From NCBI RefSeq assembly GCF_013122565.1, contig NZ_CP053258.1: a stretch of 64,000 nucleotides of DNA, one strand, 5' to 3'. Origin of the DNA: Escherichia coli. GTDB taxonomy: Bacteria > Pseudomonadota > Gammaproteobacteria > Enterobacterales > Enterobacteriaceae. Below the pieces are notes generated by a model. The model saw nothing but the letters and a program-made list of their open reading frames with translations, did no database searches and was not told the DNA's origin. Positions 8,461 through 55,229 of this stretch are shown in pieces (positions within the stretch are counted from its first letter, which is position 1; every line of letters begins with the position of its first letter). Made by a program: the position numbers and the translations under genes.

Positions 8461-10140
8461 TTATTTAATCCACATAACCTGCCAGGGGCGCAGCGTTATT
8501 TCATTACCCAATATATCAACTTCACTAATCAGATCGCGACCATGCAGATTAGTAATATTTACATGCTGAATATTTTTACTGACATTAAACAATCCAGTCA
8601 GACAATTACCCTCTGCGTTACTTCTTTGAATACGCATTACGGATGAATTAACCGTATCGATGGTAAAATTATTATCCGGATGAAACTCGTTATGGCTGCG
8701 ACGAAGTGTAATTAAACGCGACAACTCATGATATACCGCATGCCTTAATGTAGCTTCATCGTTCAGTTCTCGGGTTATCTCTTCACTGTGATATTTTTTA
8801 CGGTTAATCGCACGGTTATATCCGAGTTTTTCGACACCTGCGTAATCATTACGCGAGCCCAGAATACTTTGAATATATATCGCTGGCACACCGGGGAAAC
8901 TTAACAAAATCGCATGGGCAAGGATAAACCTGGCGCAACGTTCTTCATCGCTACTCTCGCGGCGGCTTAACGCATCCATATAGGTGACATTTATTTCATA
9001 GGGACTGCGCGTACCGTCGGGATTATTTTTCCAGTTTACTAATGCACCTTCCTGCTGTAATGCCTCGACCAGCGCTAATATTTCGCTTTCTGGTAACAAG
9101 CCCCGCAGTGGGTTCAGCCCGATGCCATCGTGAGAGGCGAGGAAGTTAAACCAGGTCGTTTTACCGGAGGGCAAGCTCAGACTTTGCGCCCACTGGCACA
9201 GCGCCTCGACGTTCTGTTTTTGCACCGCATGTAACACCAGCGGCGGCAGCGAGAACTGGTACACCATATGCGCTTCGTCATCGCCTTCGCCAAAGTAAGC
9301 AATGTTATCTTTATGCGGAACATTCGTCTCAGTAATAATCACCGTACCTGGCGCGATGTCATCAATAATCGACCGTAACAGTTTGATAATCAGATGTGTT
9401 TTTTCCAGATGGATGCAGCTTGTTCCCGGCTCTTTCCACATAAAGCCAACGGCATCCAGACGGACATATTCTGCGCCCTTTTCCAGGTAACAAAGCAAAA
9501 CATCCACCATCGCCAGCAACACGTCAGGGCTACGGTAATTCAGGTCAATTTGATCGTCGCTAAAGGTGGTCCATAAATGGCGCGTGGAATTATCATCCAT
9601 TTGAAACGGCGTTAATAGCGGTAATGCACGCGGACGGGTGACAGCGCTGAGATCGGTTTGCGGATCAACCGCAATAAAAAAATCTTCAAAACCTGGCTGC
9701 TGTTGTAAATAGTTTTTAAACCATTCACTTTTTGCCGACATATGGTTGCAGACAAAATCAAACATTAAATGACTGCATTCACCGAGCTGCTGAATATCCT
9801 GCCACTCCCCCGCTTCACTGGCGACCTGATGATAATCAATTACCGAAAATCCATCATCAGATGACCATGGATAAAAAGGTAATAAATGAACATGTGAAAA
9901 AATGCTTTGCAGCCATTGATGGTAAAACTGATTAAATGTGGGTAGTGGTTTTAAATCATTACTGTGAAATTGATCGGCATAGGTAATTAACACGACATCA
10001 CTTTCATCCCAGTGTTTTTTACGTCGCTGTGTAATTAATCGTTTCGCACTCTCAAGACGCGTTACAAGTTTCTGTAAATGAGTTGCGGTAAATGTTCCAC
10101 CGTAGATTTCGTCCAGGTAATCCGTAATTTTCTGTTTCAT
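8461..10140 (-). CDS. ycjM: GH13 sucrose-phosphorylase-like enzyme (glucosylglycerate phosphorylase)
   Basis: Track ORF 8461..10167 trimmed to MKQKITDYL (559 aa); GGAAAGG SD upstream; first gene of ycj operon; visibly more AT-rich than downstream genes. Confidence 0.85.
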   Translation of the reverse strand: MKQKITDYLDEIYGGTFTATHLQKLVTRLESAKRLITQRRKKHWDESDVVLITYADQFHSNDLKPLPTFNQFYHQWLQSIFSHVHLLPFYPWSSDDGFSVIDYHQVASEAGEWQDIQQLGECSHLMFDFVCNHMSAKSEWFKNYLQQQPGFEDFFIAVDPQTDLSAVTRPRALPLLTPFQMDDNSTRHLWTTFSDDQIDLNYRSPDVLLAMVDVLLCYLEKGAEYVRLDAVGFMWKEPGTSCIHLEKTHLIIKLLRSIIDDIAPGTVIITETNVPHKDNIAYFGEGDDEAHMVYQFSLPPLVLHAVQKQNVEALCQWAQSLSLPSGKTTWFNFLASHDGIGLNPLRGLLPESEILALVEALQQEGALVNWKNNPDGTRSPYEINVTYMDALSRRESSDEERCARFILAHAILLSFPGVPAIYIQSILGSRNDYAGVEKLGYNRAINRKKYHSEEITRELNDEATLRHAVYHELSRLITLRRSHNEFHPDNNFTIDTVNSSVMRIQRSNAEGNCLTGLFNVSKNIQHVNITNLHGRDLISEVDILGNEITLRPWQVMWIK

Positions 10141-10350: not shown

Positions 10351-10665
10351 TTAACCTTTGACCTTCGGCATTGCGATGTCTTTCAGGCCACCGGCGTTCT
10401 CAACGTGGGTATATCCCATCTCGCTAAGGATCTCTTTTGCCTGCCCTGACTGGCGTCCGGCATTGCAATACACTTTCACGGTGTCGTTTTTATCGGGAAC
10501 GGCGGTGGCAATGCGCTCTTTCACTTCCTTCAGGGGAATATTGATGGCCCCCTGAACGTGCTCTTGCTTATACTGCTCTGGAACACGAACATCGATCCAG
10601 TGTTCAGCGGCAAAAACGGGCAGTGAAAACACCAGTGCCAGAGCAAGTAAGCCTTTTTTAAACAT
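10351..10665 (-). CDS. pspE: thiosulfate sulfurtransferase (rhodanese), periplasmic
   Basis: 104-aa ORF with signal peptide and rhodanese active-site Cys (CNAGRQS). Confidence 0.9.
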   Translation of the reverse strand: MFKKGLLALALVFSLPVFAAEHWIDVRVPEQYKQEHVQGAINIPLKEVKERIATAVPDKNDTVKVYCNAGRQSGQAKEILSEMGYTHVENAGGLKDIAMPKVKG

Positions 10666-11606: not shown

Positions 11607-12347
<741 letters not shown>

Positions 12348-12441: not shown

Positions 12442-13419
12442 ATGGCAGAATACAAAGATAATTTACTTGGTGAGGCGAACAGCTTTCTCGAAGTGCTGGA
12501 ACAGGTTTCGCATCTCGCACCGCTGGACAAACCGGTGCTCATCATCGGCGAACGCGGCACCGGTAAAGAGCTGATTGCCAGCCGCCTGCATTATCTCTCC
12601 TCCCGTTGGCAAGGGCCGTTTATTTCCCTTAACTGCGCGGCGTTAAATGAAAATCTGCTGGATTCCGAACTGTTTGGTCACGAAGCGGGGGCGTTTACCG
12701 GTGCGCAAAAACGTCATCCTGGGAGATTTGAACGTGCCGACGGCGGTACGCTATTTCTTGATGAACTCGCTACGGCACCGATGATGGTGCAGGAGAAATT
12801 ATTGCGCGTGATTGAGTACGGTGAACTGGAGCGCGTTGGCGGCAGCCAGCCATTGCAGGTGAATGTGCGGTTGGTATGCGCGACGAATGCCGATCTCCCG
12901 GCGATGGTCAATGAAGGTACTTTTCGCGCTGACCTGCTCGACCGGCTGGCTTTCGATGTAGTGCAACTGCCGCCCCTGCGCGAGCGCGAAAGCGACATTA
13001 TGCTGATGGCAGAACACTTTGCCATTCAGATGTGTCGGGAAATCAAGCTGCCTCTGTTCCCGGGGTTTACGGAGCGCGCCAGAGAAACATTGCTGAATTA
13101 TCGCTGGCCGGGAAATATTCGTGAATTGAAAAACGTGGTGGAACGTTCGGTGTATCGCCACGGCACCAGCGATTATCCGCTTGATGACATCATTATTGAT
13201 CCCTTTAAACGGCGTCCACCTGAAGAAGCCATCGCCGTTTCAGAAAACACCTCGCTTCCGACGCTGCCGCTGGATTTACGCGAGTTTCAGATGCAGCAGG
13301 AAAAAGAGTTGCTGCAACTCAGTTTGCAACAAGGGAAATATAACCAGAAGCGCGCAGCTGAATTGCTGGGGTTAACCTACCATCAGTTCCGCGCGTTGCT
13401 GAAAAAACACCAGATTTAG
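12442..13419 (+). CDS. pspF: sigma-54-dependent transcriptional activator (AAA+ bEBP)
   Basis: Track ORF trimmed to MAEYKDNLLGE (325 aa); Walker A GERGTGKE; GAFTGA motif; C-terminal HTH. Confidence 0.95.
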   Translation: MAEYKDNLLGEANSFLEVLEQVSHLAPLDKPVLIIGERGTGKELIASRLHYLSSRWQGPFISLNCAALNENLLDSELFGHEAGAFTGAQKRHPGRFERADGGTLFLDELATAPMMVQEKLLRVIEYGELERVGGSQPLQVNVRLVCATNADLPAMVNEGTFRADLLDRLAFDVVQLPPLRERESDIMLMAEHFAIQMCREIKLPLFPGFTERARETLLNYRWPGNIRELKNVVERSVYRHGTSDYPLDDIIIDPFKRRPPEEAIAVSENTSLPTLPLDLREFQMQQEKELLQLSLQQGKYNQKRAAELLGLTYHQFRALLKKHQI

Positions 13420-13440
13420 CAAAGTTGGGCAATGCGATTC

Positions 13441-13521
13441 GCCGGATGCGGCGTGAATGCCTTATCCGGCATACATAATCAATACGTCGTTTGCAGGCCT
13501 GATAAGCGCAGCGTATCAGGC
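13441..13521. repeat. REP/BIME palindromic units
   Basis: GCCGGATGCGGCGTGAATGCCTTATCCGGC and GGCCTGATAAGCGCAGCGTATCAGGC between convergent pspF and puuE. Confidence 0.8.
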
Positions 13522-13549
13522 ATTATTGCGTTGCCCCTGCTTCTGCGTA

Positions 13550-14815
13550 TTAGTCTCTCAGCGCATCCTGCAAAATTTTCATGGCCGCATCGAACTGCGC
13601 ATCCGGGATGGTTAGCGGATACAGAAAACGAATCACGTTGCCGTATGCGCCACAGGTCAGCAGAAGCAGCCCCTGCGCCAGCGCGCGTTGCTGGATTTTC
13701 TGCGCAATCGCCGCTGACGGTTCGCCCGTTTGCGGATCGTTAAACTCAGCCGCGATCATAGACCCCAGACCGCGTACCGCCGCGATGGCCGGAACGCTTT
13801 CTTTGGCATCAATCAGCGTGTTTGTCAGACGCTGGCCCAGTTGATTCGCGCGTTCGCAGAGTGATTCTTTGTCGATAATGTTGAGCACCGCGTGCGCGGC
13901 AGCCACCGCCAGCGGGTTCCCGGCGTAGGTGCCACCCAACCCGCCCGGCGCGGGCGCGTCCATAATATTCGCGTTACCGACCACGCCCGAAAGCGGCATC
14001 CCGCCCGCGAGGCTTTTCGCCATCGTCATTAAGTCCGGCTTATCGGCGTAATGATCCATGGCAAACAGTTTACCGGTACGCGCAAAGCCGCTTTGCACTT
14101 CATCGGCAATCATCACAATACCGTGCTCGTCGCACAGGCGGCGAATGGCGGCAACCAGCTCTTTTGGCGCAACGTTGAAACCGCCCTCGCCCTGCACCGG
14201 TTCGAAAATAATGGCCGCGACCTGCTTCGCTTCGATGTCTGATTTAAACAAGCGTTCGATGGCGTCGAGGGAGTCCTGTGTTGAAATGCCGTGTAAATCT
14301 GACGGATAAGGTACGTGATACACCGAACCAGGGAACGGGCCGAAGCCGATTTTGTACGGCGCAACTTTTCCGGTCAGCGCCATGGTCATATATGTACGAC
14401 CGTGGAAGCCACCGCTAAACGCAATCACGCCAGGTCGTCCGGTATGGGCGCGAGCAATTTTCACCGCGTTTTCCACCGCTTCCGCACCGGTAGTGAAGAA
14501 TGCGGTTTTAGCCTGCCCGCTCACTGGGGCAAGGGCGTTAATTTTCTCCGCCAGCGTGACGTAGCTTTCGTACGGCACAATCTGATACGCCGTGTGGGTA
14601 AACTGTTGCAATTGCTGCTCCACCGCCGCGACCAGATCAGGGTGGCGATGCCCGGTATTCAGCACCGCAATGCCTGCGGCGAAATCGATGTATTCGTTGC
14701 CCTCTACGTCCTTCAGCGTAGCGTTTTCTGCCGACTGGGCGAAGAAGTTACACATCACGCCAACCCCGCGTGGGGTAGCAGAAAGACGACGCTGATGGAA
14801 TTCATTGTTGCTCAT
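13550..14815 (-). CDS. puuE: 4-aminobutyrate aminotransferase (PLP-dependent)
   Basis: 421-aa ORF, class-III aminotransferase. Confidence 0.95.
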   Translation of the reverse strand: MSNNEFHQRRLSATPRGVGVMCNFFAQSAENATLKDVEGNEYIDFAAGIAVLNTGHRHPDLVAAVEQQLQQFTHTAYQIVPYESYVTLAEKINALAPVSGQAKTAFFTTGAEAVENAVKIARAHTGRPGVIAFSGGFHGRTYMTMALTGKVAPYKIGFGPFPGSVYHVPYPSDLHGISTQDSLDAIERLFKSDIEAKQVAAIIFEPVQGEGGFNVAPKELVAAIRRLCDEHGIVMIADEVQSGFARTGKLFAMDHYADKPDLMTMAKSLAGGMPLSGVVGNANIMDAPAPGGLGGTYAGNPLAVAAAHAVLNIIDKESLCERANQLGQRLTNTLIDAKESVPAIAAVRGLGSMIAAEFNDPQTGEPSAAIAQKIQQRALAQGLLLLTCGAYGNVIRFLYPLTIPDAQFDAAMKILQDALRD

Positions 14816-14852
14816 GTTTCACACCTTTTGACTCTTCACTGTTAATCGGAAA

Positions 14853-16133
14853 TTAAACGCCCAGACGATCGCGCAGGCTGTAATAAGCCGCGCCCATCGC
14901 GGTAAATGGCACGCGCAGCGTGCGCCCGCCGGGAAACGGGTAATGCGGCAGATTGGCGAAGGCATCGAAACGTTCGGCGTCGCCGCGCAGCAGTTCGGCA
15001 ATCAGACGCCCGGCAAGATGGGTACAGGTGACGCCGTGGCCGCTGTAGCCCTGCATGTAATAGATGTTGGTATCAAGGCGACCGAACTGCGGCATGCGCG
15101 ACAAGGTCAGCAGGAAGTTGCCCGTCCAGCGGTAATCAATTTTCACGCCCTTCAGCTGCGGGAAGGTTTTCAGCAGTTTCGGCACCACAAGGCGCTCAAC
15201 GTCATCCGGGTCGCGCGCGCCGTAGACCACGCCGCCGCCGTACAGCAGGCGGTTGTCGGCGGTAAGACGGTAGTAATCAAGCAGATAGTTACAGTCTTCC
15301 ACACAGTAGTTTTTCGGGATCAGCGAACGGGCTAAATCTTCCGACAGCCGTTCGGTGGTGATCACCTGCGTGCCGCACGGCATGCTGCGTTTCGCCAGTT
15401 CCGGCTCTACTTTATCGCCCAGATACGCATTCCCGGCGACAATCACATACTTCGCCGTCACCTGACCTTTGGCAGTTCGCACAACGGCTGGCGTGGTGTG
15501 CTGGATCTGCGTCACGGCAGAAAGTTCATACACGCGCCCGCCGTTGAGGCGGATGGCGTCGGCTTCACCAATGGCGAGGTTCAACGGGTGAATATGCCCG
15601 CCGCTGTGATCAAGCAGCGCGCCGGTATAGCGATCGCTGGCGACCTCGCGGCGAATGGCGTTGGCGTCCAGCAGTTCCAGCTGTTTATTGCCGTAGCGTT
15701 CCCAGTTCTCTTTCTGCTCTTCAAGTGTGGCGAGTTGTTTATCATTCATCGCCACAAACAGGCCGCCGGGGCGGTAGTCGCAGTCAATCTGATAACGTTT
15801 GATACGTTCGCGGATGATCTCGCCGCCTTCAAACATCATGCTGCCGAGCATACGGGCGGTATCCATGCCGTAGCTTTTTTCGATAACGTCGATGTCGCGG
15901 CTGTAGGAGTTCACAAGCTGCCCGCCGTTGCGCCCGCTGGCACCAAAGCCGATGCGTGAGGCTTCGAGAACCACTACGTCAAAGCCCGCTTCCGCCAGAT
16001 GCAACGCGGAGGAAAGCCCGGTATAGCCGCCGCCGACCACGCAAACGTCGCAGGAAATCGACTCATTCAGCGTGTCGAAAGGCGCATATTTATTCGCACT
16101 GGCGGCGTAGTAACTGCTGGTATGTTCGGTCAT
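14853..16133 (-). CDS. puuB: gamma-glutamylputrescine oxidase (FAD)
   Basis: 426-aa ORF with FAD-binding VVGGGYTG. Confidence 0.95.
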   Translation of the reverse strand: MTEHTSSYYAASANKYAPFDTLNESISCDVCVVGGGYTGLSSALHLAEAGFDVVVLEASRIGFGASGRNGGQLVNSYSRDIDVIEKSYGMDTARMLGSMMFEGGEIIRERIKRYQIDCDYRPGGLFVAMNDKQLATLEEQKENWERYGNKQLELLDANAIRREVASDRYTGALLDHSGGHIHPLNLAIGEADAIRLNGGRVYELSAVTQIQHTTPAVVRTAKGQVTAKYVIVAGNAYLGDKVEPELAKRSMPCGTQVITTERLSEDLARSLIPKNYCVEDCNYLLDYYRLTADNRLLYGGGVVYGARDPDDVERLVVPKLLKTFPQLKGVKIDYRWTGNFLLTLSRMPQFGRLDTNIYYMQGYSGHGVTCTHLAGRLIAELLRGDAERFDAFANLPHYPFPGGRTLRVPFTAMGAAYYSLRDRLGV

Positions 16134-16134
16134 T

Positions 16135-17622
16135 TCAGGCCTCCAGGCTTATCCAGATGGTTTTCAGTTCAGTGAATTTTTCAAGGGCATGCAGGGATTT
16201 GTCTCGACCGTTGCCGCTCTGCTTATAGCCGCCAAACGGCACGGTCATATCGCCATCGTTATAGTTATTGACGAAGACGGAACCGGCTTTCAGGCGACGG
16301 CTCATACGGTGGGCGCGGGAGAGATCGCGCGTCCACACCGCCGCGCCGAGGCCATACTGGCTGTCATTGGCAAGCTGTAGCGCCTGATCTTCTGATGTGA
16401 AACGGGTGACCACCAGCACCGGGCCGAAAATCTCTTCGCGGCTTAAGGACGCATTCGGGTCCACATCCACAAAGATGGTCGGGCCAATGGCCGCCGCCAG
16501 CCCGGCGTTACGACCATCCAGCAGCAGTTGCCCTTTGCCTTCGCCTTCACGAATAAAGCCATGCACCGAGTCAGCATGAGCGCTGTCGATTAAGGTGCCC
16601 ATGGTGGTTGCGGGGTCGAGCGGATGCCCCGGCTGCCAGTTTTGCGCCTGCTGTTTTAACAGGGCTAAGAATTCATCGGCGATGCTCTCTTCCAGCAACA
16701 GGCGCGTTCCGGCGATACACACCTGCCCCTGGTTGTAGAAAATGCCCGCTGCGGTGGCGCTCGCCGCTTTTTGAAGATCCGGGCAGTCGGCAAAAACGAT
16801 GTTGGCGCTTTTGCCACCGGCTTCCAGCCAGACGCGTTTCATGTTGCTGTCGCCTGCGTCTTTCAGCAGCTGTTTCCCGGTACGGGTCGAGCCGGTGAAG
16901 GCGATAACATCGATATCGCCATGGCATGACAGCGCCTGTCCCGCTTCATGACCAAAACCCGTCACCACGTTCAACACACCATCCGGCAAGCCTGCTTCTT
17001 TCGCCAGCCCAGCGAGACGTATCGCACTGAGCGGTGATTTTTCAGACGGTTTCAGGACAACGCTGTTCCCTGCCGCCAGCGCCGGGCCAAGCTTCCAGCA
17101 GGTCAGCAGCAGCGGGAAGTTCCACGGTACTATGGCGGCAATCACGCCGACCGGTTCACGCACGATCATCGCCAGCTCATGGCTACTGGTGGTCGCCACT
17201 TCGCCATACACTTTGTCGATTGCTTCGGCGTACCAGCGAATGGCGCGCGCCGCGCCGGGTATATCATCACGAAGGCTGTGACGAATCGGTTTGCCGGTGT
17301 CGAGGGTTTCCAGCAGCGCCAGTTCTTCGGCGTGGGCTTCCATTAAATCGGCGAGTTTATTCAGCACCGCTTTACGTTTTGCCGGGGCAGCCTGCGACCA
17401 GTCGCCGCGTTCAAATACGCCGTGTGCTGCGCTCACCGCACGGTCGATATCGACGCTCTTGCCGCGCGCAATATTCGCCAGCGGTGCCTGGGTGACCGGA
17501 TCAACGGTTTCAAAGGTTTCATTTTCCGCCGCAGCAGTATATTCACCGTTAATAAATAAGCGGGTTTCAATGGCGAGACTTAACGCTTTATCCTGCCAGT
17601 AAGCCAGATGATGAAAATTCAT
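16135..17622 (-). CDS. puuC: gamma-glutamyl-gamma-aminobutyraldehyde dehydrogenase
   Basis: Track ORF trimmed to MNFHHLAYWQDK (495 aa); aldehyde dehydrogenase family. Confidence 0.9.
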   Translation of the reverse strand: MNFHHLAYWQDKALSLAIETRLFINGEYTAAAENETFETVDPVTQAPLANIARGKSVDIDRAVSAAHGVFERGDWSQAAPAKRKAVLNKLADLMEAHAEELALLETLDTGKPIRHSLRDDIPGAARAIRWYAEAIDKVYGEVATTSSHELAMIVREPVGVIAAIVPWNFPLLLTCWKLGPALAAGNSVVLKPSEKSPLSAIRLAGLAKEAGLPDGVLNVVTGFGHEAGQALSCHGDIDVIAFTGSTRTGKQLLKDAGDSNMKRVWLEAGGKSANIVFADCPDLQKAASATAAGIFYNQGQVCIAGTRLLLEESIADEFLALLKQQAQNWQPGHPLDPATTMGTLIDSAHADSVHGFIREGEGKGQLLLDGRNAGLAAAIGPTIFVDVDPNASLSREEIFGPVLVVTRFTSEDQALQLANDSQYGLGAAVWTRDLSRAHRMSRRLKAGSVFVNNYNDGDMTVPFGGYKQSGNGRDKSLHALEKFTELKTIWISLEA

Positions 17623-17771
17623 TATGACTCCTGTTTCACGTCTATCAGATATATGCAGTTTGTGAACGTCAGGGCGCAGAGATCCCCGGGCCGTATGCCC
17701 GTTTATTTCTGGCGACATTCTTTATGGATTGCCGGGCGCATTGCGCTTACCCGGCTTACAGAACAAAAAGA

Positions 17772-18329
17772 TTAAAACGTGGTGGGCGTATGGGCGCTGA
17801 TAATTCGGCAAATACCTGCCGACGTATTACTGAAACTGTGCGGGATGCCGGTATTAATGGCATAACTTTGCCCCGCGACGAGATGATAATCCTGACCATT
17901 AATCGTCAGAACAATTTCACCTTCCAGTACAGTGCCTATTTCCTCACCCTGATGCTTAATTCTTTCCCCGGTGGTTGTGCCAGGCTGGTAAGTTTCAAAG
18001 ATCATCGCCAGCGTGCGATTCGGGTTACCGTTATGAACCAGCTTCATTGACACACCCTGACTGCCCATCTCAATTAAATCGTCCTGATTAATGACGACCT
18101 GCGGCTCATCAGGTTTTTCCGGCTCGGAAAAGAATTCCGAGAGTGACAGACCATACACCTTCAGCAGCTTTTGCAGCGTACTGATGGCAGGGCTGACTTT
18201 ATCTTGTTCTATCGTACTGATAGCACTGTGAGTCAGCCCGGAGAGTTCGGCGGCACGACGTTGTGAAAGCCCCTGCTGCTGGCGGATTTCCGACAAGCGT
18301 TTTCCTGGCGCCAGTCCCTCATCACTCAT
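17772..18329 (-). CDS. puuR: HTH-XRE/cupin repressor of puu genes
   Basis: 185-aa ORF; N-terminal HTH, C-terminal cupin. Confidence 0.95.
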   Translation of the reverse strand: MSDEGLAPGKRLSEIRQQQGLSQRRAAELSGLTHSAISTIEQDKVSPAISTLQKLLKVYGLSLSEFFSEPEKPDEPQVVINQDDLIEMGSQGVSMKLVHNGNPNRTLAMIFETYQPGTTTGERIKHQGEEIGTVLEGEIVLTINGQDYHLVAGQSYAINTGIPHSFSNTSAGICRIISAHTPTTF

Positions 18330-18355
18330 ATTTGCATTTCCTTAAACTGTAGTGG

Positions 18356-19120
18356 TCAGAGTCGCTGTTTTTCAGCGATATGGTGCTGACAAGCGGTGAT
18401 AAAGCCCTCGAACAATATACGCGAAAGCGCGTACTCGCTACTGTTCCATTCCGGGTGCCACTGTACGCCCAGCGCAAAAGGATGATTGATGACGCTCACC
18501 GCCTCAACTAAGCCATCCGGCGAGCGAGCTTCAACACGCAACCGTGGGCTAACGACCTTCGCCCCTTGTCCATGCAGAGAGTTTACCCAAAAGTTGCTAC
18601 ATTCAGGTAACAACGCAGACAGCAATCCCCCCTCTTCAACCTGAACTTCATGCGACGGTGCATATTGCTGTTCCACCGGCAGTTCGGGATCTTCCCGATG
18701 TTCCAGCAATTCAGGCTGTTCGCACAGCTTGCGATGCAACGAACCACCGGTTGCCACCACCAGTTCCTGTAAACCCCGGCAGATGGCGAAAATGGGGATG
18801 CGCCTTTCGAGTGCGGCATTAATTAACGCCATGCTCAGAAGATCACGCCCGGGATCGGCGTCAGGCTCATCGCCGTTTTCACCATATAGGTGCGGCTGCA
18901 CATTGCTGGGACTACCAGGAAGATAAATACCATCGAGTTTCGGCAAAAGTTGTTCAAGTAATGACGGTTCCGCCAGCGCATGTGGCAGCGCAATCGGCAA
19001 ACCGCCCGCGTGGATGATGGCATTCAGGTACTTTTCTTGCAGAGTCTGGGTCGTATGACCCTTAAGCCTGTTCCTGCACATTACGACACCGATAACCGGA
19101 TTGTTCATTATATTTTCCAT
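18356..19120 (-). CDS. puuD: gamma-glutamyl-GABA hydrolase (class-I glutamine amidotransferase)
   Basis: Track ORF trimmed to MENIMNNPVIG (254 aa); catalytic Cys in AICRG. Confidence 0.9.
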   Translation of the reverse strand: MENIMNNPVIGVVMCRNRLKGHTTQTLQEKYLNAIIHAGGLPIALPHALAEPSLLEQLLPKLDGIYLPGSPSNVQPHLYGENGDEPDADPGRDLLSMALINAALERRIPIFAICRGLQELVVATGGSLHRKLCEQPELLEHREDPELPVEQQYAPSHEVQVEEGGLLSALLPECSNFWVNSLHGQGAKVVSPRLRVEARSPDGLVEAVSVINHPFALGVQWHPEWNSSEYALSRILFEGFITACQHHIAEKQRL

Positions 19121-19331
19121 GCTCAATCTCACAAAGTGGACTAAATTATCGCCATTACTGCGCTTTAAATGACCTTTATGTTCAATATTTTTTCAATCTA
19201 GCAGTGGGTTTTCATTTTTGCAAACTCAATTTAACATTTGACAAACATTTAGTTTGCATACAGATTCGAATGGTGGTCATTATATTTTACGCTTTGATAA
19301 CGAGCGGAAAACAAACCAAAGGCGAAGAATC
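19121..19331. promoter_or_regulatory. puuD/puuA divergent control region with candidate PuuR operators
   Basis: AT-rich spacer with related elements ATGTTCAATATTTTTTCAAT and TGGTCATTATATTTTACGC. Confidence 0.5.
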
Positions 19332-20750
19332 ATGGAAACCAATATCGTTGAAGTAGAGAACTTTGTTCAGCAGTCAGAAGAGAGGCGGGGTAGCGCCTTT
19401 ACGCAGGAAGTGAAACGCTACCTGGAGCGCTACCCGAATACGCAATATGTTGATGTTTTACTTACCGATTTGAATGGTTGTTTTCGTGGAAAACGTATCC
19501 CTGTTTCAAGCCTGAAGAAGTTGGAGAAAGGGTGTTATTTCCCGGCCTCGGTGTTTGCAATGGATATTCTGGGCAACGTAGTAGAAGAAGCTGGCCTGGG
19601 TCAGGAAATGGGTGAGCCGGATCGTACCTGTGTCCCTGTTCTTGGTTCCTTAACCCCTTCTGCCGCCGATCCAGAGTTTATCGGTCAGATGCTCCTGACC
19701 ATGGTCGATGAAGATGGCGCTCCCTTTGACGTTGAGCCGCGGAACGTTCTTAACCGCCTGTGGCAGCAGCTGCGCCAGCGCGGATTGTTCCCGGTCGTAG
19801 CGGTAGAGCTGGAGTTCTATTTACTGGATCGTCAGCGCGACGCTGAAGGGTATCTGCAGCCGCCCTGCGCGCCCGGCACCGATGACCGCAATACACAAAG
19901 CCAGGTTTACTCGGTTGATAACCTCAACCACTTCGCCGATGTGCTCAATGATATTGATGAACTGGCGCAGTTACAGTTAATTCCCGCCGACGGTGCGGTC
20001 GCCGAAGCCTCGCCGGGTCAGTTTGAAATCAATCTTTACCATACCGATAACGTGCTGGAAGCCTGCGATGATGCGCTGGCACTAAAACGCCTGGTGCGTC
20101 TGATGGCAGAAAAGCATAAGATGCACGCCACTTTTATGGCGAAGCCGTATGAAGAGCACGCGGGCAGCGGGATGCATATCCATATCAGTATGCAAAATAA
20201 TCGTGGCGAGAACGTGCTTTCTGACGCGGAAGGCGAAGATTCGCCGCTGCTGAAAAAAATGCTCGCCGGAATGATCGATCTGATGCCGTCATCAATGGCG
20301 TTGCTGGCACCAAACGTGAACTCGTATCGCCGCTTCCAGCCGGGGATGTATGTACCGACGCAGGCGTCGTGGGGCCATAACAACCGCACCGTCGCCCTGC
20401 GTATTCCATGCGGCGATCGCCATAATCACCGCGTGGAATATCGCGTGGCGGGTGCCGATGCCAACCCATATCTGGTGATGGCAGCGATTTTTGCCGGTAT
20501 TTTGCACGGTCTTGATAACGAGCTGCCGTTGCAGGAAGAAGTCGAAGGCAACGGGCTGGAACAGGATGGCTTACCCTTCCCGATTCGCCAGAGCGATGCC
20601 CTGGGTGAGTTTATCGAGAATGATCACCTGCGCCGCTATTTAGGCGAACGGTTTTGCCATGTCTATCACGCCTGTAAAAATGATGAGCTGTTGCAGTTTG
20701 AGCGCCTCATCACAGAAACAGAAATTGAGTGGATGTTGAAAAACGCATAG
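19332..20750 (+). CDS. puuA: glutamate-putrescine ligase (glutamine-synthetase family)
   Basis: Track ORF trimmed to METNIVEVENF (472 aa). Confidence 0.95.
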   Translation: METNIVEVENFVQQSEERRGSAFTQEVKRYLERYPNTQYVDVLLTDLNGCFRGKRIPVSSLKKLEKGCYFPASVFAMDILGNVVEEAGLGQEMGEPDRTCVPVLGSLTPSAADPEFIGQMLLTMVDEDGAPFDVEPRNVLNRLWQQLRQRGLFPVVAVELEFYLLDRQRDAEGYLQPPCAPGTDDRNTQSQVYSVDNLNHFADVLNDIDELAQLQLIPADGAVAEASPGQFEINLYHTDNVLEACDDALALKRLVRLMAEKHKMHATFMAKPYEEHAGSGMHIHISMQNNRGENVLSDAEGEDSPLLKKMLAGMIDLMPSSMALLAPNVNSYRRFQPGMYVPTQASWGHNNRTVALRIPCGDRHNHRVEYRVAGADANPYLVMAAIFAGILHGLDNELPLQEEVEGNGLEQDGLPFPIRQSDALGEFIENDHLRRYLGERFCHVYHACKNDELLQFERLITETEIEWMLKNA

Positions 20751-21052
20751 TACCCCTTGCGGGGTTGTTTCATCGGCCTGAGCGGAGCCAGGCCTGACAT
20801 TTGCTGGTAATCCAGACATTTCCCGGATGTCGCGTTATGGAGCGCAGGCGGCAACGGGCTTCCGTTAACGATTAAGACTGTGACGAGGAAATGAGATGAT
20901 GCCGATGATTAAATCCCCGCATGGCGCGGGAGGCTGCGTATGCGCCCCTCCTGCGACTGACTGGACTCCGCCCCCTTTGCTTCCCTTGCTAAACAGGTTT
21001 GATTTCAGGTCGACACGACCGCAAACCTTATTACGCAGGGGAGGCAGCAATT

Positions 21053-22438
21053 ATGGCTATTAATTCACCACTGAATATTGCTGCGCAACCCGGCAAAACC
21101 CGTCTGCGAAAATCACTGAAATTGTGGCAGGTTGTGATGATGGGTCTGGCCTATCTCACGCCGATGACTGTGTTCGATACCTTTGGCATTGTATCTGGCA
21201 TTAGCGACGGTCACGTCCCGGCGTCCTATTTGCTGGCGCTGGCGGGCGTGCTGTTTACCGCTATCAGCTACGGCAAACTGGTTCGCCAGTTTCCGGAGGC
21301 CGGTTCGGCCTATACCTACGCGCAAAAGTCGATTAACCCGCACGTCGGATTTATGGTCGGCTGGTCATCGCTGCTGGATTATCTCTTTTTGCCGATGATC
21401 AACGTCTTGTTGGCGAAAATCTATCTCTCCGCCCTCTTCCCGGAAGTGCCGCCGTGGGTGTGGGTGGTAACCTTCGTCGCCATTTTAACCGCCGCGAATC
21501 TGAAGAGCGTCAACCTGGTCGCTAACTTCAATACCCTGTTTGTACTGGTGCAAATCTCCATCATGGTGGTGTTTATCTTCCTGGTGGTTCAGGGACTGCA
21601 TAAAGGAGAAGGCGTTGGCACCGTCTGGTCACTTCAGCCGTTTATCAGCGAGAACGCGCACCTGATCCCGATTATTACCGGGGCGACGATTGTCTGTTTC
21701 TCGTTCCTCGGTTTCGATGCGGTGACCACGCTTTCGGAAGAGACGCCGGACGCCGCACGCGTGATCCCAAAAGCCATCTTCCTGACGGCGGTATACGGCG
21801 GCGTTATCTTTATTGCTGCGTCGTTCTTTATGCAGCTGTTCTTTCCCGATATCAGCCGCTTTAAAGATCCGGATGCCGCACTGCCTGAAATTGCGCTGTA
21901 CGTCGGCGGCAAGCTCTTCCAGTCGATTTTCCTCTGCACCACGTTTGTGAACACGCTAGCGTCTGGCCTGGCTTCACATGCCAGCGTGTCGCGTCTGCTG
22001 TATGTGATGGGGCGTGACAATGTGTTTCCGGAGCGCGTGTTTGGCTATGTGCACCCAAAATGGCGGACTCCGGCACTCAACGTCATTATGGTCGGAATTG
22101 TCGCGATGTCGGCGCTGTTCTTCGATTTAGTTACCGCCACAGCGTTAATTAACTTCGGTGCTCTGGTGGCGTTTACCTTCGTGAATCTGTCGGTGTTTAA
22201 TCATTTCTGGCGGCGTAAAGGAATGAATAAAAGCTGGAAGGATCACTTCCACTATTTGCTGATGCCGCTGGTTGGCGCGCTAACGGTGGGTGTGCTGTGG
22301 GTTAACCTCGAGTCAACGTCACTGACACTCGGTCTGGTATGGGCTTCGTTAGGCGGCGCATATTTGTGGTATCTGATCCGCCGCTATCGCAAAGTGCCGT
22401 TGTATGATGGTGACAGAACGCCGGTGAGCGAAACGTAA
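21053..22438 (+). CDS. puuP: putrescine importer (APC superfamily)
   Basis: Track ORF trimmed to [12 protein letters not shown] (461 aa); about 12 TM segments. Confidence 0.95.
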
Positions 22439-22447
22439 TAGTCGGAT

Positions 22448-22486
22448 GCGCGGCGCATTATCCTGCCTGAGGGTAATGCACCGCGC
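22448..22486 (+). other. imperfect stem-loop after puuP stop (possible terminator, no U-tract)
   Basis: GCGCGGCGCATTA ... TAATGCACCGCGC, 13-bp arms with one mismatch. Confidence 0.4.
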
Positions 22487-22571
22487 CATTAACTATAAAA
22501 AGATGTATGACCCGGATCACGAGTGCTATCATCCGCCCTTATGCTTAGCGCATTAACCCCAGGGGCAAATA

Positions 22572-22817
22572 ATGAACCACGATATCCCGCTAAAATATTT
22601 TGATATTGCCGATGAGTACGCGACCGAATGCGCAGAGCCTGTCGCAGACGCTGAACGCACACCGCTGGCCCACTACTTCCAGTTACTGCTCACCCGTTTG
22701 ATGAACAATGAAGAGATCAGCGAAGAAGCCCAACATGAAATGGCTGCTGAAGCGGGGATTAATCCCGTACGCATTGATGAGATCGCAGAGTTTTTGAATC
22801 AATGGGGTAATGAGTAA
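22572..22817 (+). CDS. ymjA: small acidic protein of unknown function
   Basis: 81-aa [22 protein letters not shown]. Confidence 0.85.
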
Positions 22818-22850
22818 TTATTTAATTGCAGACGATCGGTCAGTATCGTT

Positions 22851-22880
22851 GCCCGGATAAAGCGTTCACGCTGCATCCGG
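22851..22880. repeat. REP element
   Basis: GCCCGGATAAAGCGTTCACGCTGCATCCGG matches the REP consensus on the opposite strand. Confidence 0.7.
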
Positions 22881-22993
22881 TTAAAATGACACGCATTGCA
22901 GCGTGCTTTAATGGGTTTCTCACGATCGTACCGCTCTGCTCCTCGCTAAGTTGTTCTGTGAGTTATAGTTATAGAGAAATCACGGGTACGAAT

Positions 22994-23024
22994 GTTGAAC
23001 AGATGGCGACGCCATCTGTTCAAC
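22994..23024. promoter_or_regulatory. 31-nt perfect palindrome upstream of sapA (candidate operator or UTR hairpin)
   Basis: GTTGAACAGATGGCG-A-CGCCATCTGTTCAAC, 15-bp perfect arms, about 105 nt upstream of sapA ATG. Confidence 0.4.
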
Positions 23025-23128
23025 GACCAACCACACGGCCCTCATTACGACCCCTGAACACAAACGGTAATGGCAAATGTCATTAAATATTAGTAAGATA
23101 GCCTCTTTACATAAAATCCCTTAATATT

Positions 23129-24772
23129 ATGCGCCAGGTATTATCGTCTCTTTTGGTGATTGCTGGACTTGTGAGTGGTCAGGCAATCGCCGCGCCTGAA
23201 TCCCCCCCGCATGCTGATATCCGCGACAGCGGTTTTGTCTATTGCGTCAGCGGGCAAGTCAACACCTTTAACCCATCCAAAGCGAGCAGTGGGTTAATTG
23301 TCGATACCCTTGCCGCCCAGTTTTATGATCGACTGCTGGATGTCGATCCCTATACCTATCGCCTGATGCCGGAACTTGCCGAAAGCTGGGAAGTACTCGA
23401 CAACGGCGCGACCTATCGCTTCCACCTGCGTCGCGATGTTCCGTTTCAAAAAACCGACTGGTTTACTCCCACTCGTAAAATGAATGCCGACGATGTGGTG
23501 TTTTCCTTCCAGCGAATTTTTGACCGCAACAACCCGTGGCATAACGTCAACGGCAGCAACTTCCCCTACTTCGACAGCCTGCAATTTGCCGATAACGTGA
23601 AAAGCGTCCGTAAACTGGATAATCATACCGTTGAGTTCCGTCTGGCTCAGCCGGATGCTTCTTTTTTGTGGCACCTCGCAACCCATTATGCTTCGGTCAT
23701 GTCGGCAGAATATGCCCGGAAGTTAGAGAAAGAAGATCGCCAGGAGCAACTCGACCGTCAACCGGTCGGCACTGGACCGTATCAGTTGTCGGAATACCGC
23801 GCCGGGCAATTTATTCGCCTACAACGTCATGATGACTTCTGGCGCGGTAAACCGTTAATGCCGCAGGTGGTGGTGGATTTAGGCTCCGGCGGCACCGGAC
23901 GTCTGTCGAAACTCCTGACCGGGGAATGCGACGTTCTGGCCTGGCCTGCTGCCAGCCAGCTATCCATTTTGCGTGACGACCCGCGCTTGCGTTTAACGCT
24001 GCGTCCTGGGATGAACGTCGCCTATCTGGCATTTAACACCGCCAAACCGCCGCTAAATAATCCCGCTGTCCGCCATGCGCTGGCACTGGCGATTAATAAC
24101 CAGCGCCTGATGCAATCCATCTATTATGGTACGGCTGAAACGGCGGCCTCTATTTTACCGCGCGCCTCGTGGGCCTATGACAACGAGGCTAAAATTACTG
24201 AATACAATCCGGCGAAATCGCGCGAACAGTTGAAGGCGTTGGGGCTGGAAAACTTAACGCTGAAACTGTGGGTGCCAACACGTTCGCAGGCGTGGAACCC
24301 CAGTCCACTGAAAACCGCCGAACTGATTCAGGCGGATATGGCGCAGGTTGGCGTAAAAGTGGTGATTGTGCCGGTAGAAGGTCGCTTTCAGGAGGCGCGG
24401 TTGATGGATATGAGCCATGATCTGACGTTATCCGGTTGGGCGACGGACAGTAACGACCCGGACAGTTTCTTCCGTCCGTTACTGAGCTGCGCAGCAATTC
24501 ATTCACAGACCAACCTCGCCCACTGGTGCGATCCGAAATTCGACAGCGTATTGCGTAAGGCGCTCTCCTCGCAGCAACTGGCGGCGCGCATTGAAGCCTA
24601 TGACGAAGCGCAGAGTATTCTGGCGCAGGAATTGCCCATTTTGCCGCTGGCGTCGTCATTGCGTTTGCAGGCCTATCGGTACGATATCAAAGGTCTGGTA
24701 CTTAGCCCGTTTGGTAACGCCTCCTTTGCTGGGGTGTATCGCGAGAAACAGGATGAGGTGAAAAAACCATGA
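23129..24772 (+). CDS. sapA: periplasmic peptide-binding protein of Sap ABC transporter
   Basis: 547-aa ORF with signal peptide, family-5 SBP. Confidence 0.95.
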
Positions 24773-44404: not shown

Positions 44405-44776
44405 AGCTCCTCCTTAATGACAGGGTTGCGAAGCCCTGATTCTCTTCAGGGTGAGTATTAAAGATAACACAAACATCGCGTAACGATTTGATAACAACCC
44501 AAATTGATAAAAGAGGAGAAACCTTGTGGCAAAGCAAATGAAAACCCCGCCGCAGCGGGGTCAAGGATCAGTGAGTAATGATCCAGAGGAGTTCGGCCCA
44601 GAAGAGCATCGACAGAGAAAATGCACCCATCCAGGACCAATATTTCATATTTGTGTTGATCATAGGCTACACCTTTAACGGTTATTACTTTGTGTTGAGA
44701 TAACTCAACCTGTTATTGCTGTGGTGTATTAAAAGCCCTTTAATTCATTAAAAATGGGTAATAAGAATGATGATAA

Positions 44777-55114: not shown

Positions 55115-55159
55115 ATGAAAGCAATTTTCGTACTGAAAGGTTGGTGGCGCACTTCCTGA
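55115..55159 (+). CDS. trpL: trp operon leader peptide
   Basis: ATGAAAGCAATTTTCGTACTGAAAGGTTGGTGGCGCACTTCCTGA = [14 protein letters not shown] with tandem Trp codons. Confidence 0.95.
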
Positions 55160-55200
55160 AACGGGCAGTGTATTCACCTTGCGTAAAGCAATCAGATACC

Positions 55201-55229
55201 CAGCCCGCCTAATGAGCGGGCTTTTTTTT
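55201..55229 (+). terminator. trp attenuator (3:4 hairpin plus U-tract)
   Basis: CAGCCCGCCTAATGAGCGGGCTTTTTTTT about 20 nt upstream of trpE. Confidence 0.95.

Follow-up and report, generated by a model that had tools for sequence, protein, structure and literature searches.

The pspF-puuE and ymjA-sapA intergenic spacers of Escherichia coli harbor old, fixed members of the REP family, the first (site 1) a BIME-1-type composite and the second (site 2) a lone y unit, for which a role at the 3' ends of the neighbouring messages can be proposed; we would put the probability of this reading at roughly 85%. Exactly three REP units were found in the window, by which we mean the whole 64-kb stretch of DNA analysed, using profile HMMs (nhmmer) built from independent K-12 loci (23 y, 6 Z1 and 15 Z2 units drawn from nine K-12 segments, the puu locus being excluded). 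The units and their accompanying features are as follows.

13441-13474, minus strand: y-class REP of site 1 (palindrome 13441-13470, head tetranucleotide 13471-13474), an iREP on the pspF-sense plus strand; y HMM E 4.8e-11, 38.7 bits
13475-13492: linker ATAATCAATACGTCGTTT, 18 nt, placed head-to-head between the y and Z1 units
13477-13489, plus strand: IHF-consensus-like site AATCAATACGTCG, with 1 mismatch to WATCAANNNNTTR, located in the TTR element
13493-13522, plus strand: Z1-class (short-loop) REP of site 1, with a GCAG head (13493-13496) in place of GTAG; HMM match 13495-13522, Z1 HMM E 8.3e-9, 31.4 bits
13523-13533, plus strand, Z1 side: BIME-1 flank motif ATTATTGCGTT, identified by alignment to canonical pairs
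22848-22882, plus strand: solitary degenerate y REP of site 2, GTTG-CCCGGATAAAGCGTTCACGCTGCATCCGG-TT, with its palindrome core, also the HMM match, at 22853-22880; y HMM E 1.2e-6, 24.7 bits

No fourth unit was detected in the 64-kb window, the next best HMM match scoring at most 7.7 bits, and shuffled sequences, 20 for each model, scored no higher than 9.6 bits. REP consensus strings showed 1/30 and 2/25 mismatches to the REP units and found no match in 100 shuffles. With the y consensus published by Nunvar (2010; PMC2817692, Table 1), the site 1 y unit agrees at 31 of 35 positions and site 2 at 28 of 35. By loop length the K-12 reference units sort into the three classes y, Z1 and Z2, in agreement with the class definitions in print (PMC3333891, PMC2817692), and their copy number is high, about 50 units having been counted in 450 kb of K-12 DNA. 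All three units in the window fold as the canonical REP hairpin, with the internal loop at its expected position (dG -13.3 to -20.2 kcal/mol, z -3.1 to -4.1), and at both sites they are extragenic, lying between annotated genes. They are genuine copies of REP, the commonest intergenic repeat of E. coli. A first-pass annotation of this DNA had placed REP-type palindromes in both spacers, which the three HMM matches confirm, and had named formal alignment to REP families as the check on that assignment; all three units match, none of them poorly. The interval 13441-22880 does not constitute a feature of its own; it comprises the puu cluster and ymjA between two separate REP sites. Two further REP-foot-like hairpins within it, at 17730-17759 and 22440-22470, were excluded as y or Z units by HMM scoring, and their folds are respectively weak (z -1.85) and no better than shuffles (z +0.39). 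An Rfam scan at gathering thresholds matched no family in the same span. None of the RefSeq records examined contains REP features, that of K-12 included; because the K-12 record annotates no REPs at all, even beside rayT, the missing annotation at pspF-puuE and ymjA-sapA is uninformative.

These hairpins stand 21-35 nt past stop codons, where terminators would be expected, and could in principle be gene-specific regulatory structures or intrinsic terminators that resemble REPs by chance. That explanation is exceedingly improbable and has effectively been refuted already by the REP HMM scores, which reach E values of 1e-6 to 5e-11 with independently derived models as against the low ceiling of shuffled sequences. 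In addition, site 1 aligns over its full length, flank motif included, to unrelated BIME-1 loci, and none of the three hairpins is followed by a T-run.

The genes flanking site 1, pspF (plus strand) and puuE (minus strand), are convergent, and the element occupies the interval between their stop codons. Its y unit begins 21 nt beyond the pspF stop codon (13419) and folds with a predicted dG of -19.2 to -20.2 kcal/mol (z -3.6); on the puuE transcript, read from the minus strand, the Z1 hairpin (dG -13.3 to -13.9 kcal/mol, z -3.2 to -3.3) begins 28 nt past the puuE stop codon (13550). The Z unit shows the 6-nt gap between foot motifs that defines Z1, unlike the long-loop Z2, and it scores 31.4 bits with the Z1 HMM versus 10.2 bits with the Z2 HMM. 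Site 1 aligns from end to end with the independent K-12 y-Z1 pairs at fliC-fliA, yfeS-cysM, yfeW-yfeX, yqeA-yqeB and yhfZ-trpS, all five of which are, like it, arranged head-to-head; the motif flanking Z1 reads A(A/G)TTT(T/G)GCGTT in four of these five and is one base off in yhfZ-trpS. Judged by these alignments, site 1 (13441-13533) is a single-copy BIME-1-type (RIB/RIP-type) composite, more than two loose units. The earlier count of "two units" between pspF and puuE was correct as far as it went, both being present, but the element amounts to a y iREP, a shortened linker, a Z1 unit and a right-flank motif.

In common with BIME-1 elements as defined in print (PMC3333891), site 1 has inverted y and Z1 units in single copy, without tandem repeats; it lies at the 3' ends of transcription units, it has kept the Z1-side flank motif, and the TCAATA core of its linker is in register with the ATTCAATATATTG sites of 5-6 canonical copies. 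It departs from them in several respects. The linker measures 18 nt, compared with 27-36 nt in the five independent K-12 copies, and is without two parts of L, GTGCAAAT and GCA.... Alignment is confined to the TCAATA core and a terminal TT; this pattern fits a deletion derivative of L rather than the canonical motif. The heads are GTAT (ATAC on the plus strand, 13471-13474) and GCAG instead of GTAG, and the left-flank motif is not conserved. The IHF-like site has a single mismatch, the same count as in canonical L sites, although at site 1 the mismatch falls in TTR and in the canonical copies in WATCAA; sites with no more than one mismatch occur by frequency about once per 1.9 kb of strand. 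The linker may bind IHF, as reported for canonical BIME-1 linkers, but such binding is uncertain, given a linker half as long as the canonical ones and an IHF-like site whose mismatch is in TTR. The other major arrangement, BIME-2 (y and Z2 units with S linkers, in tandem), is not represented in the window, which contains no Z2 unit (the best Z2 score, 10.2 bits, falls on the Z1 unit) and no tandem repetition. In the window the BIME is enclosed by a 12-bp helix, which was rejected as part of the element, being allele-specific and not conserved.

A "RIB element in the goaG-pspF intergenic region" was reportedly described by Jovanovic and Model (J Bacteriol 1997). As goaG is the former name of puuE, that element would be the K-12 orthologue of site 1. 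A full-text literature search found no mention of a goaG-pspF RIB element, and the RepRanger supplements mention none of these genes.

Site 2 lies between the co-directional genes ymjA and sapA (both plus strand), its stem beginning 35 nt past the ymjA stop codon (22817) and about 250 nt before the sapA ATG (23129), with a predicted dG of -15.2 to -16.6 kcal/mol (z -3.1 to -4.1). It resembles a solitary y REP in its y length and loop, in a stem with an internal mismatch, and in its extragenic position just 3' of a gene. It differs in being degenerate, with a GTTG head, a CCCGG foot in place of GCCGG and seven departures from the 35-position consensus, and it scores 24.7 bits with the y HMM where the site 1 y unit scores 38.7. 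Solitary units are established members of the family, 84 of 584 K-12 REPs having been reported as single (PMC3333891). The first-pass annotation regarded both sites as operon boundaries. At site 1 this follows directly from the convergent 3' ends; at site 2 the boundary is a putative one, ymjA and sapA being co-directional. A separate strong palindrome was noted upstream of sapA.

The GTAG tetranucleotide is altered in all three units (GTAT, GCAG and GTTG), the two y-class heads, GTAT at site 1 and GTTG at site 2, each matching it at 3/4 positions. GTAT also occurs in 2 of the 23 K-12 reference y units, and is thus a variant within the family. Binding and cleavage by TnpA_REP need an intact GTAG (PMC3333891), and the altered y heads should accordingly abolish recognition by this enzyme. 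A still-mobile REPIN/BIME at site 1, cut by RayT (TnpA_REP), or alternatively a strong gyrase site of BIME-2 type, would be in keeping with the architecture of two inverted REPs and a spacer, and K-12 does encode rayT, with BIMEs on both of its flanks. Such an element is nonetheless very unlikely. Its heads are not those required by TnpA_REP; the 32-mer comprising linker and Z1 sequence is single-copy (one copy in each of two matching genomes), and its exact copies are confined to E. coli-like DNA in an exact-pattern scan of 100,044 species representatives; all strains read have the element at the orthologous position. Site 1 thus has neither the intact GTAG pair nor the copies at several loci that mark a mobile REPIN or RayT substrate, and gyrase enrichment has been reported for BIME-2 (PMC6379681), of whose Z2 units and tandem repetition site 1 has none. 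Both sites would have arisen through REP dissemination by RayT (TnpA_REP), and the present copies are probably no longer mobilisable. That they are old, fixed and probably immobile is argued by the mutated GTAG heads together with the decay of y stems in several lineages.

Comparison among strains bears on the age of these elements as well as on their upkeep. Among 5,426 complete E. coli genomes, locus-level matches to the two loci number 5,423 and 5,421, and every strain read has the REP units, even where the puu cluster is missing; this bears out species-wide the earlier remark that such copies are "ordinary for E. coli". The K-12 pspF-puuE element and site 1 are one and the same, orthologous element, and the site 2 REP is orthologous in 7 of 7 strains compared. 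Where the spacers align, the window allele of site 1 is about 8% different from that of K-12, and its stems are more intact; at both sites the K-12 copy is weaker than that in the window. Among 8 strains, the only ones to which these counts apply, the linker (1 variable column of 18), Z1 (3/30) and right motif (1/11) of site 1 are far less variable than its y unit (11/34) or the upstream spacer (10/21). Strain A15 has a weakened y stem of -7.5 kcal/mol, and in the divergent lineage E69 the linker and Z1 are kept and y is largely deleted. Changes in the opposite sense have also occurred: IHE3034 carries a full compensatory change at site 1, from G-C to A-T, and in the stem of site 2 an ancestral A.C mismatch has become A-T in the lineage of the window. 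Because stem-breaking changes in the site 1 y unit are found in several lineages (dG -7.5 to -20.5 kcal/mol), strong selection on that hairpin is argued against. The strains further differ by an ERIC-like insertion polymorphism, and about 21% of E. coli genomes carry an 8.7-kb puu deletion. Recombination between the flanking y REPs was ruled out as the source of this deletion, whose junction falls within puuE and puuP and shows an overlap of 4 nt.

Two further readings of this variation deserve consideration. The copies could be decaying, functionless relics of selfish REP spread, retained since their loss is neutral or difficult and having no effect on the expression of neighbouring genes. 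The mutated heads of all three units, the variability of the site 1 y unit with its weakening in A15 and near-disappearance in E69, and the weaker K-12 copies at both sites are all in line with this view, which we regard as possible, if doubtful. It accounts less readily for the near-invariance of linker, Z1 and right motif in 8 strains and their retention in E69, for the compensatory or restoring stem changes at both sites, for the persistence of the units in every strain read, at loci matched in essentially every E. coli genome, and for the REPs being the sole strong 3' hairpins in spacers devoid of intrinsic-terminator-like sites. Conversely, the short-linker BIME-1 at pspF-puuE could be a selectively maintained module, in which linker, Z1 and right flank are held under purifying selection, for example as a puuE-proximal 3'-end or IHF-binding element, while the pspF-proximal y unit is free to decay or to undergo repeated repair, either through compensatory changes or through gene conversion with the ymjA-sapA y REP, 9.4 kb distant. 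This more specific proposal is unlikely; were it true, the locus would be a naturally occurring test case in which what REPs do for the host could be told apart from their selfish persistence.

Neither strand shows an intrinsic-terminator-like site in 13350-13620 or in 22400-23140, and promoter-like sites are likewise lacking in the pspF-puuE and ymjA-sapA spacers. With no intrinsic-terminator-like site in either spacer, no strong 3' structure other than a REP hairpin follows pspF, puuE or ymjA, and the REP hairpins may serve as the 3'-end structures of these genes. REPs are treated in print as 3'UTR terminator and stabiliser elements: REP325 is a partly Rho-dependent terminator as well as an mRNA stabiliser, and convergent gene pairs that bear REPs show elevated expression, although REP effects are context-dependent and terminal REPs do not uniformly lengthen half-lives (bioRxiv 10.64898/2026.03.23.713779). 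Site 2 is, like REP325 (yjdM-yjdN), a REP between co-directional genes, and site 1 falls in the class of convergent pairs analysed genome-wide in that study; REP325, however, is a multi-unit cluster characterised by direct experiments, and the sites in the window are one pair and one unit, known here from sequence. By analogy, the transcribed hairpins would lie at the 3' ends of the pspF, puuE and ymjA mRNAs, where they would block 3'-to-5' exonucleases and so stabilise the upstream message, and would partly halt transcription, probably with the assistance of Rho. Such a partial stop would limit how far transcription runs on, convergently between pspF and puuE and past ymjA into sapA. Protection of mRNA 3' ends and partial termination would be the likely role. 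The first-pass annotation had set REPs against regulatory hairpins, as explaining structure that might otherwise be mistaken for the latter. The structures are indeed REPs, yet the contrast was drawn too sharply, given that the spacers contain no intrinsic-terminator-like site and that REPs are themselves described as 3'UTR elements.

The elements are of an already well-described kind, and nothing new is needed to explain the hairpins. Both sites are best annotated as REP/BIME-1-type repeats and not as new riboregulators or terminators; with no REP features in the RefSeq records examined, scans will keep rediscovering them. Stem integrity differs between strains, by 2- to 3-fold in predicted stability, and because the REPs are the sole strong 3' structures of pspF, puuE and ymjA, these differences could modulate how strongly the psp activator and the putrescine-catabolism genes are expressed.

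The psp-puu-ymjA-sap region lies in the window in the orientation opposite to that of K-12; its genes were called as ORFs and named from the RefSeq features beneath their matches. Because the 3' ends of pspF (+) and puuE (-) face each other, this pair is convergent, across a spacer of 130 bp; ymjA and sapA run in the same direction, separated by 311 bp.

Genes, REP units and Rfam matches in the window
11607-12275, minus strand: pspA
end at 13419, plus strand: pspF
13441-13474, REP sense on the minus strand: site-1 y unit, GCCGGATGCGGCGTGAATGCCTTATCCGGC-ATAC
13493-13522, plus strand: site-1 Z1 unit, GCAG-GCCTGATAAGCGCAGCGTATCAGGC-A
13550-14815, minus strand: puuE
after puuE, minus strand: puuB, puuC, puuR, puuD
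plus strand: puuA, puuP
22572-22817, plus strand: ymjA
22848-22882, plus strand: site-2 y unit, GTTG-CCCGGATAAAGCGTTCACGCTGCATCCGG-TT
23129-24772, plus strand: sapA
44534-44736, minus strand: STnc180 sRNA (Rfam, 199 bits)
55136-55229, plus strand: trp operon leader (Rfam, 93.5 bits)

The first-pass annotation had read the palindromes at 13441-13521 (pspF-puuE) and 22851-22880 (ymjA-sapA) as REP elements, and formal alignment to the REP families upheld this, with a poor match at none of the units. Reference units were collected by a loose foot-motif scan of nine K-12 segments, evenly spaced or unrelated (450 kb, this locus excluded). They split by loop length into y (11-nt gap), Z2 (13-nt) and Z1 (6-nt) classes, in agreement with published REP definitions (Ton-Hoang et al., PMC3333891) and consensus strings (Nunvar et al., PMC2817692). 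HMMs trained on 23 y, 6 Z1 and 15 Z2 of these units were run against the window. The y model matched 13474-13441 on the minus strand (E 4.8e-11, 38.7 bits) and 22853-22880 on the plus strand (E 1.2e-6, 24.7 bits), and the Z1 model matched 13495-13522 on the plus strand (E 8.3e-9, 31.4 bits), a unit to which the Z2 model gave just 10.2 bits. The three models found no further REP unit in the 64 kb, all remaining scores being 7.7 bits or lower, and the 20 shuffles run for each model peaked at 9.6 bits. All three units have the predicted fold canonical for REPs, a hairpin interrupted by an internal mismatch (dG -13.3 to -20.2 kcal/mol, z -3.1 to -4.1). The stretches of the K-12 record NC_000913.3 that were examined carry no REP or repeat_region features, even at the characterised BIMEs flanking rayT, so that missing annotation in that record is uninformative.

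Judged from its sequence, site 1 has the architecture of BIME-1, in which y and Z1 occur in single copy with an L linker (PMC3333891). With the REP sense of y on the minus strand and that of Z1 on the plus strand, the two heads point towards one another, 18 nt apart, and five independent K-12 y-Z1 pairs (fliC-fliA, yfeS-cysM, yfeW-yfeX, yqeA-yqeB and yhfZ-trpS) are likewise arranged head-to-head. In a multiple alignment site 1 matches these pairs from the y foot through Z1 into a Z1-side flank motif, which is ATTATTGCGTT in the window and A(A/G)TTT(T/G)GCGTT in four of the five. The linker, however, is shorter than the 27-36 nt of the K-12 pairs, and its sequence, ATAATCAATACGTCGTTT, retains only the TCAATA core and terminal T's of the ~35-nt BIME-1 L motif. 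In the alignment this core lines up with the ATTCAATATATTG sites of canonical BIME-1 linkers, and the site-1 and canonical linkers alike carry one mismatch to the IHF consensus WATCAANNNNTTR; the site-1 sequence is AATCAATACGTCG (13477-13489), and its mismatch falls in the TTR element. Sites this good arise about once per 1.9 kb of strand, which places their chance occurrence in an 18-nt linker at ~1-2%; IHF binding here is possible. The heads are GTAT (y) and GCAG (Z1), and since binding and cleavage by TnpA_REP need an intact GTAG (PMC3333891), the site-1 copies are probably immobile.

A 12-bp helix peculiar to the window allele, GGGCAAUGCGAU / AUUGCGUUGCCC (13427-13438 with 13526-13537), encloses the entire BIME, and for the 136 nt that span the spacer the predicted fold has dG -57.9 kcal/mol (z -4.5). 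Other site-1 alleles have only part of the helix or none of it; its left arm in the window consists of four clustered substitutions (GCGATTC vs ACAACTT) common to only 6 of 5,426 genomes. A mosaic allele may have produced the helix by chance, or it may stem from a templated quasi-palindrome mutation.

Site 2 is by sequence a solitary y REP, significant yet clearly degenerate: it matches the published y consensus at 28 of 35 positions, its head is GTTG, and its foot has CCCGG in place of GCCGG. Descriptions of REP, BIME-1 and RIB/RIP elements go back to the 1980s-1990s, and a 1997 paper in J. Bacteriol. reportedly bears the title 'The RIB element in the goaG-pspF intergenic region of Escherichia coli'. 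As goaG is the former name of puuE, the K-12 orthologue of site 1 may already have been studied directly. The elements at both sites are a known kind of element in a known kind of place.

At the level of the locus, 5,426 complete E. coli genomes were searched: 5,423 match the 401-bp query for site 1, and 5,421 match that for site 2. Where the sequence itself was read (ten strains or contigs for site 1, seven for site 2), the REP units are always present, and their insertion therefore predates the diversification of E. coli. Site 1 is a polymorphism hotspot: over its 401 bp identity to the window exceeds 95.8% in no genome; site 2 has matches of 100%. Among eight strains, variable columns number 11 of 34 in y, 10 of 21 in the upstream spacer, 1 of 18 in the linker, 3 of 30 in Z1 and 1 of 11 in the right motif. 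Predicted stabilities range across strains from -7.5 to -20.5 kcal/mol (site-1 y), -6.3 to -12.5 (Z1) and -9.5 to -15.2 (site-2 y), and the window copies of all three sit near the intact end. In the divergent E69 lineage (91.6% identity across the 2.9 kb compared) the site-1 y is largely deleted, with linker, Z1 and flank intact. Such decay of the y unit supports the main rival reading, that the elements are neutral relics; against it stand the compensatory changes in the stems and how little linker, Z1 and flank vary, in a sample of only eight strains.

Regarding these stem changes, the inner stem of site 2 has an A.C mismatch in its commonest form, converted to A-T in the window lineage, and the site-1 y of IHE3034 carries a matched double change from G-C to A-T. 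As a result the latter (9143-9170 of the IHE3034 stretch, L012) is identical at 28 of 28 positions to the reverse complement of window 22853-22880, the site-2 unit. The inner-stem change common to both, GGCG/CGCC to AGCG/CGCT, is absent from 23 of 23 reference y units. Compensatory evolution may have run in parallel at the two y REPs to give this identity, or gene conversion may have copied one into the other.

In each genome that matches it, the exact linker-plus-Z1 32-mer has a single copy; a scan of 100,044 species representatives located it solely in E. coli and one MAG contig. This contig, DXKH01000083.1, carries the label Citrobacter sp.; along 14.7 kb of psp-puu it shares 96% identity with the window, and it is probably mis-binned or mislabelled E. 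coli DNA.

About 1,150 of the 5,426 complete genomes, including IHE3034 and S5, are without the whole puu putrescine-utilisation cluster (window ~13613-22334). The edges of this 8.7-kb deletion fall within puuE, of which 63 nt remain, and puuP, of which ~104 nt remain, with a 4-nt overlap at the junction (~9310-9313 of L012); with the junction inside these genes and both REP sites retained, a REP-mediated deletion is ruled out. Within the cluster, a 125-bp insertion in the puuR-puuC spacer is present in K-12 (~10519-10643 of the K-12 stretch L001) and A15, and missing from CE2050, E203449 and the window (empty site 17726/17727). This dispersed repeat occupies a median of 10 places per genome, and 2,791 of 5,449 records have a copy at least 99% identical; its core resembles the ERIC/IRU consensus. 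Beside it, 12 nt past the puuR stop and inside the puuDRCBE string, lies a REP-like hairpin, GTAA-GCCGGGTAAGCGCAATGCGCCCGGC-A (17730-17759, minus strand), identical in all four strains compared and resembling Citrobacter/Klebsiella-type REP strings (Nunvar 2010, Table 1, PMC2817692). It gave no score with the y/Z HMMs and was rejected as an E. coli y/Z REP; its fold is weakly above shuffles (z -1.85), and ~0.5 Mb of E. coli DNA searched held no other copy. A hairpin with REP-like feet, GTCGGATGCGCGGCGCATTATCCTGC (22440-22470), directly after the puuP stop, was likewise rejected, being significant neither by HMM nor by folding (z +0.39), and may be what is left of a very old REP, or resemble one by chance.

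A perfect palindrome at 22994-23024, ~105 nt upstream of sapA, has a 14-bp stem and a 3-nt loop (TTGAACAGATGGCG-ACG-CGCCATCTGTTCAA; dG -23.3 kcal/mol, z -7.8). It is not a REP, is followed by a T-run on neither strand, is unique within the ~0.5 Mb of E. coli DNA searched, and is weakened in K-12 by two substitutions. The sap operon could use it as an operator or as a 5'UTR structure.

As to function, a gyrase role is unlikely, because the reported gyrase enrichment concerns BIME-2 (PMC6379681) and there is neither a Z2 unit nor a tandem array here. No intrinsic-terminator-like or sigma-70-like sites were found in the pspF-puuE and ymjA-sapA spacers, and a gathering-threshold scan placed no Rfam family in the span of the two sites, STnc180 and the trp leader being its only matches in the window; the REP hairpins are thus the only strong 3' structures. 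They begin 21, 28 and 35 nt past the stop codons of pspF, puuE and ymjA, respectively. REPs within ~15 nt of a stop codon can reportedly reduce translation (Liang, Rudd & Deutscher 2015), and none of the three units is as close as that. By analogy with the REP family at large, we infer that an exonuclease block together with partial termination is the best-supported mechanism. The transcribed hairpins would act as a barrier to 3'-to-5' exonucleases and, with the assistance of Rho, would partly terminate transcription; those of site 1 would in this way insulate pspF and puuE against convergent read-through, and that of site 2 would reduce transcription running on from ymjA into the promoter region of sapA.
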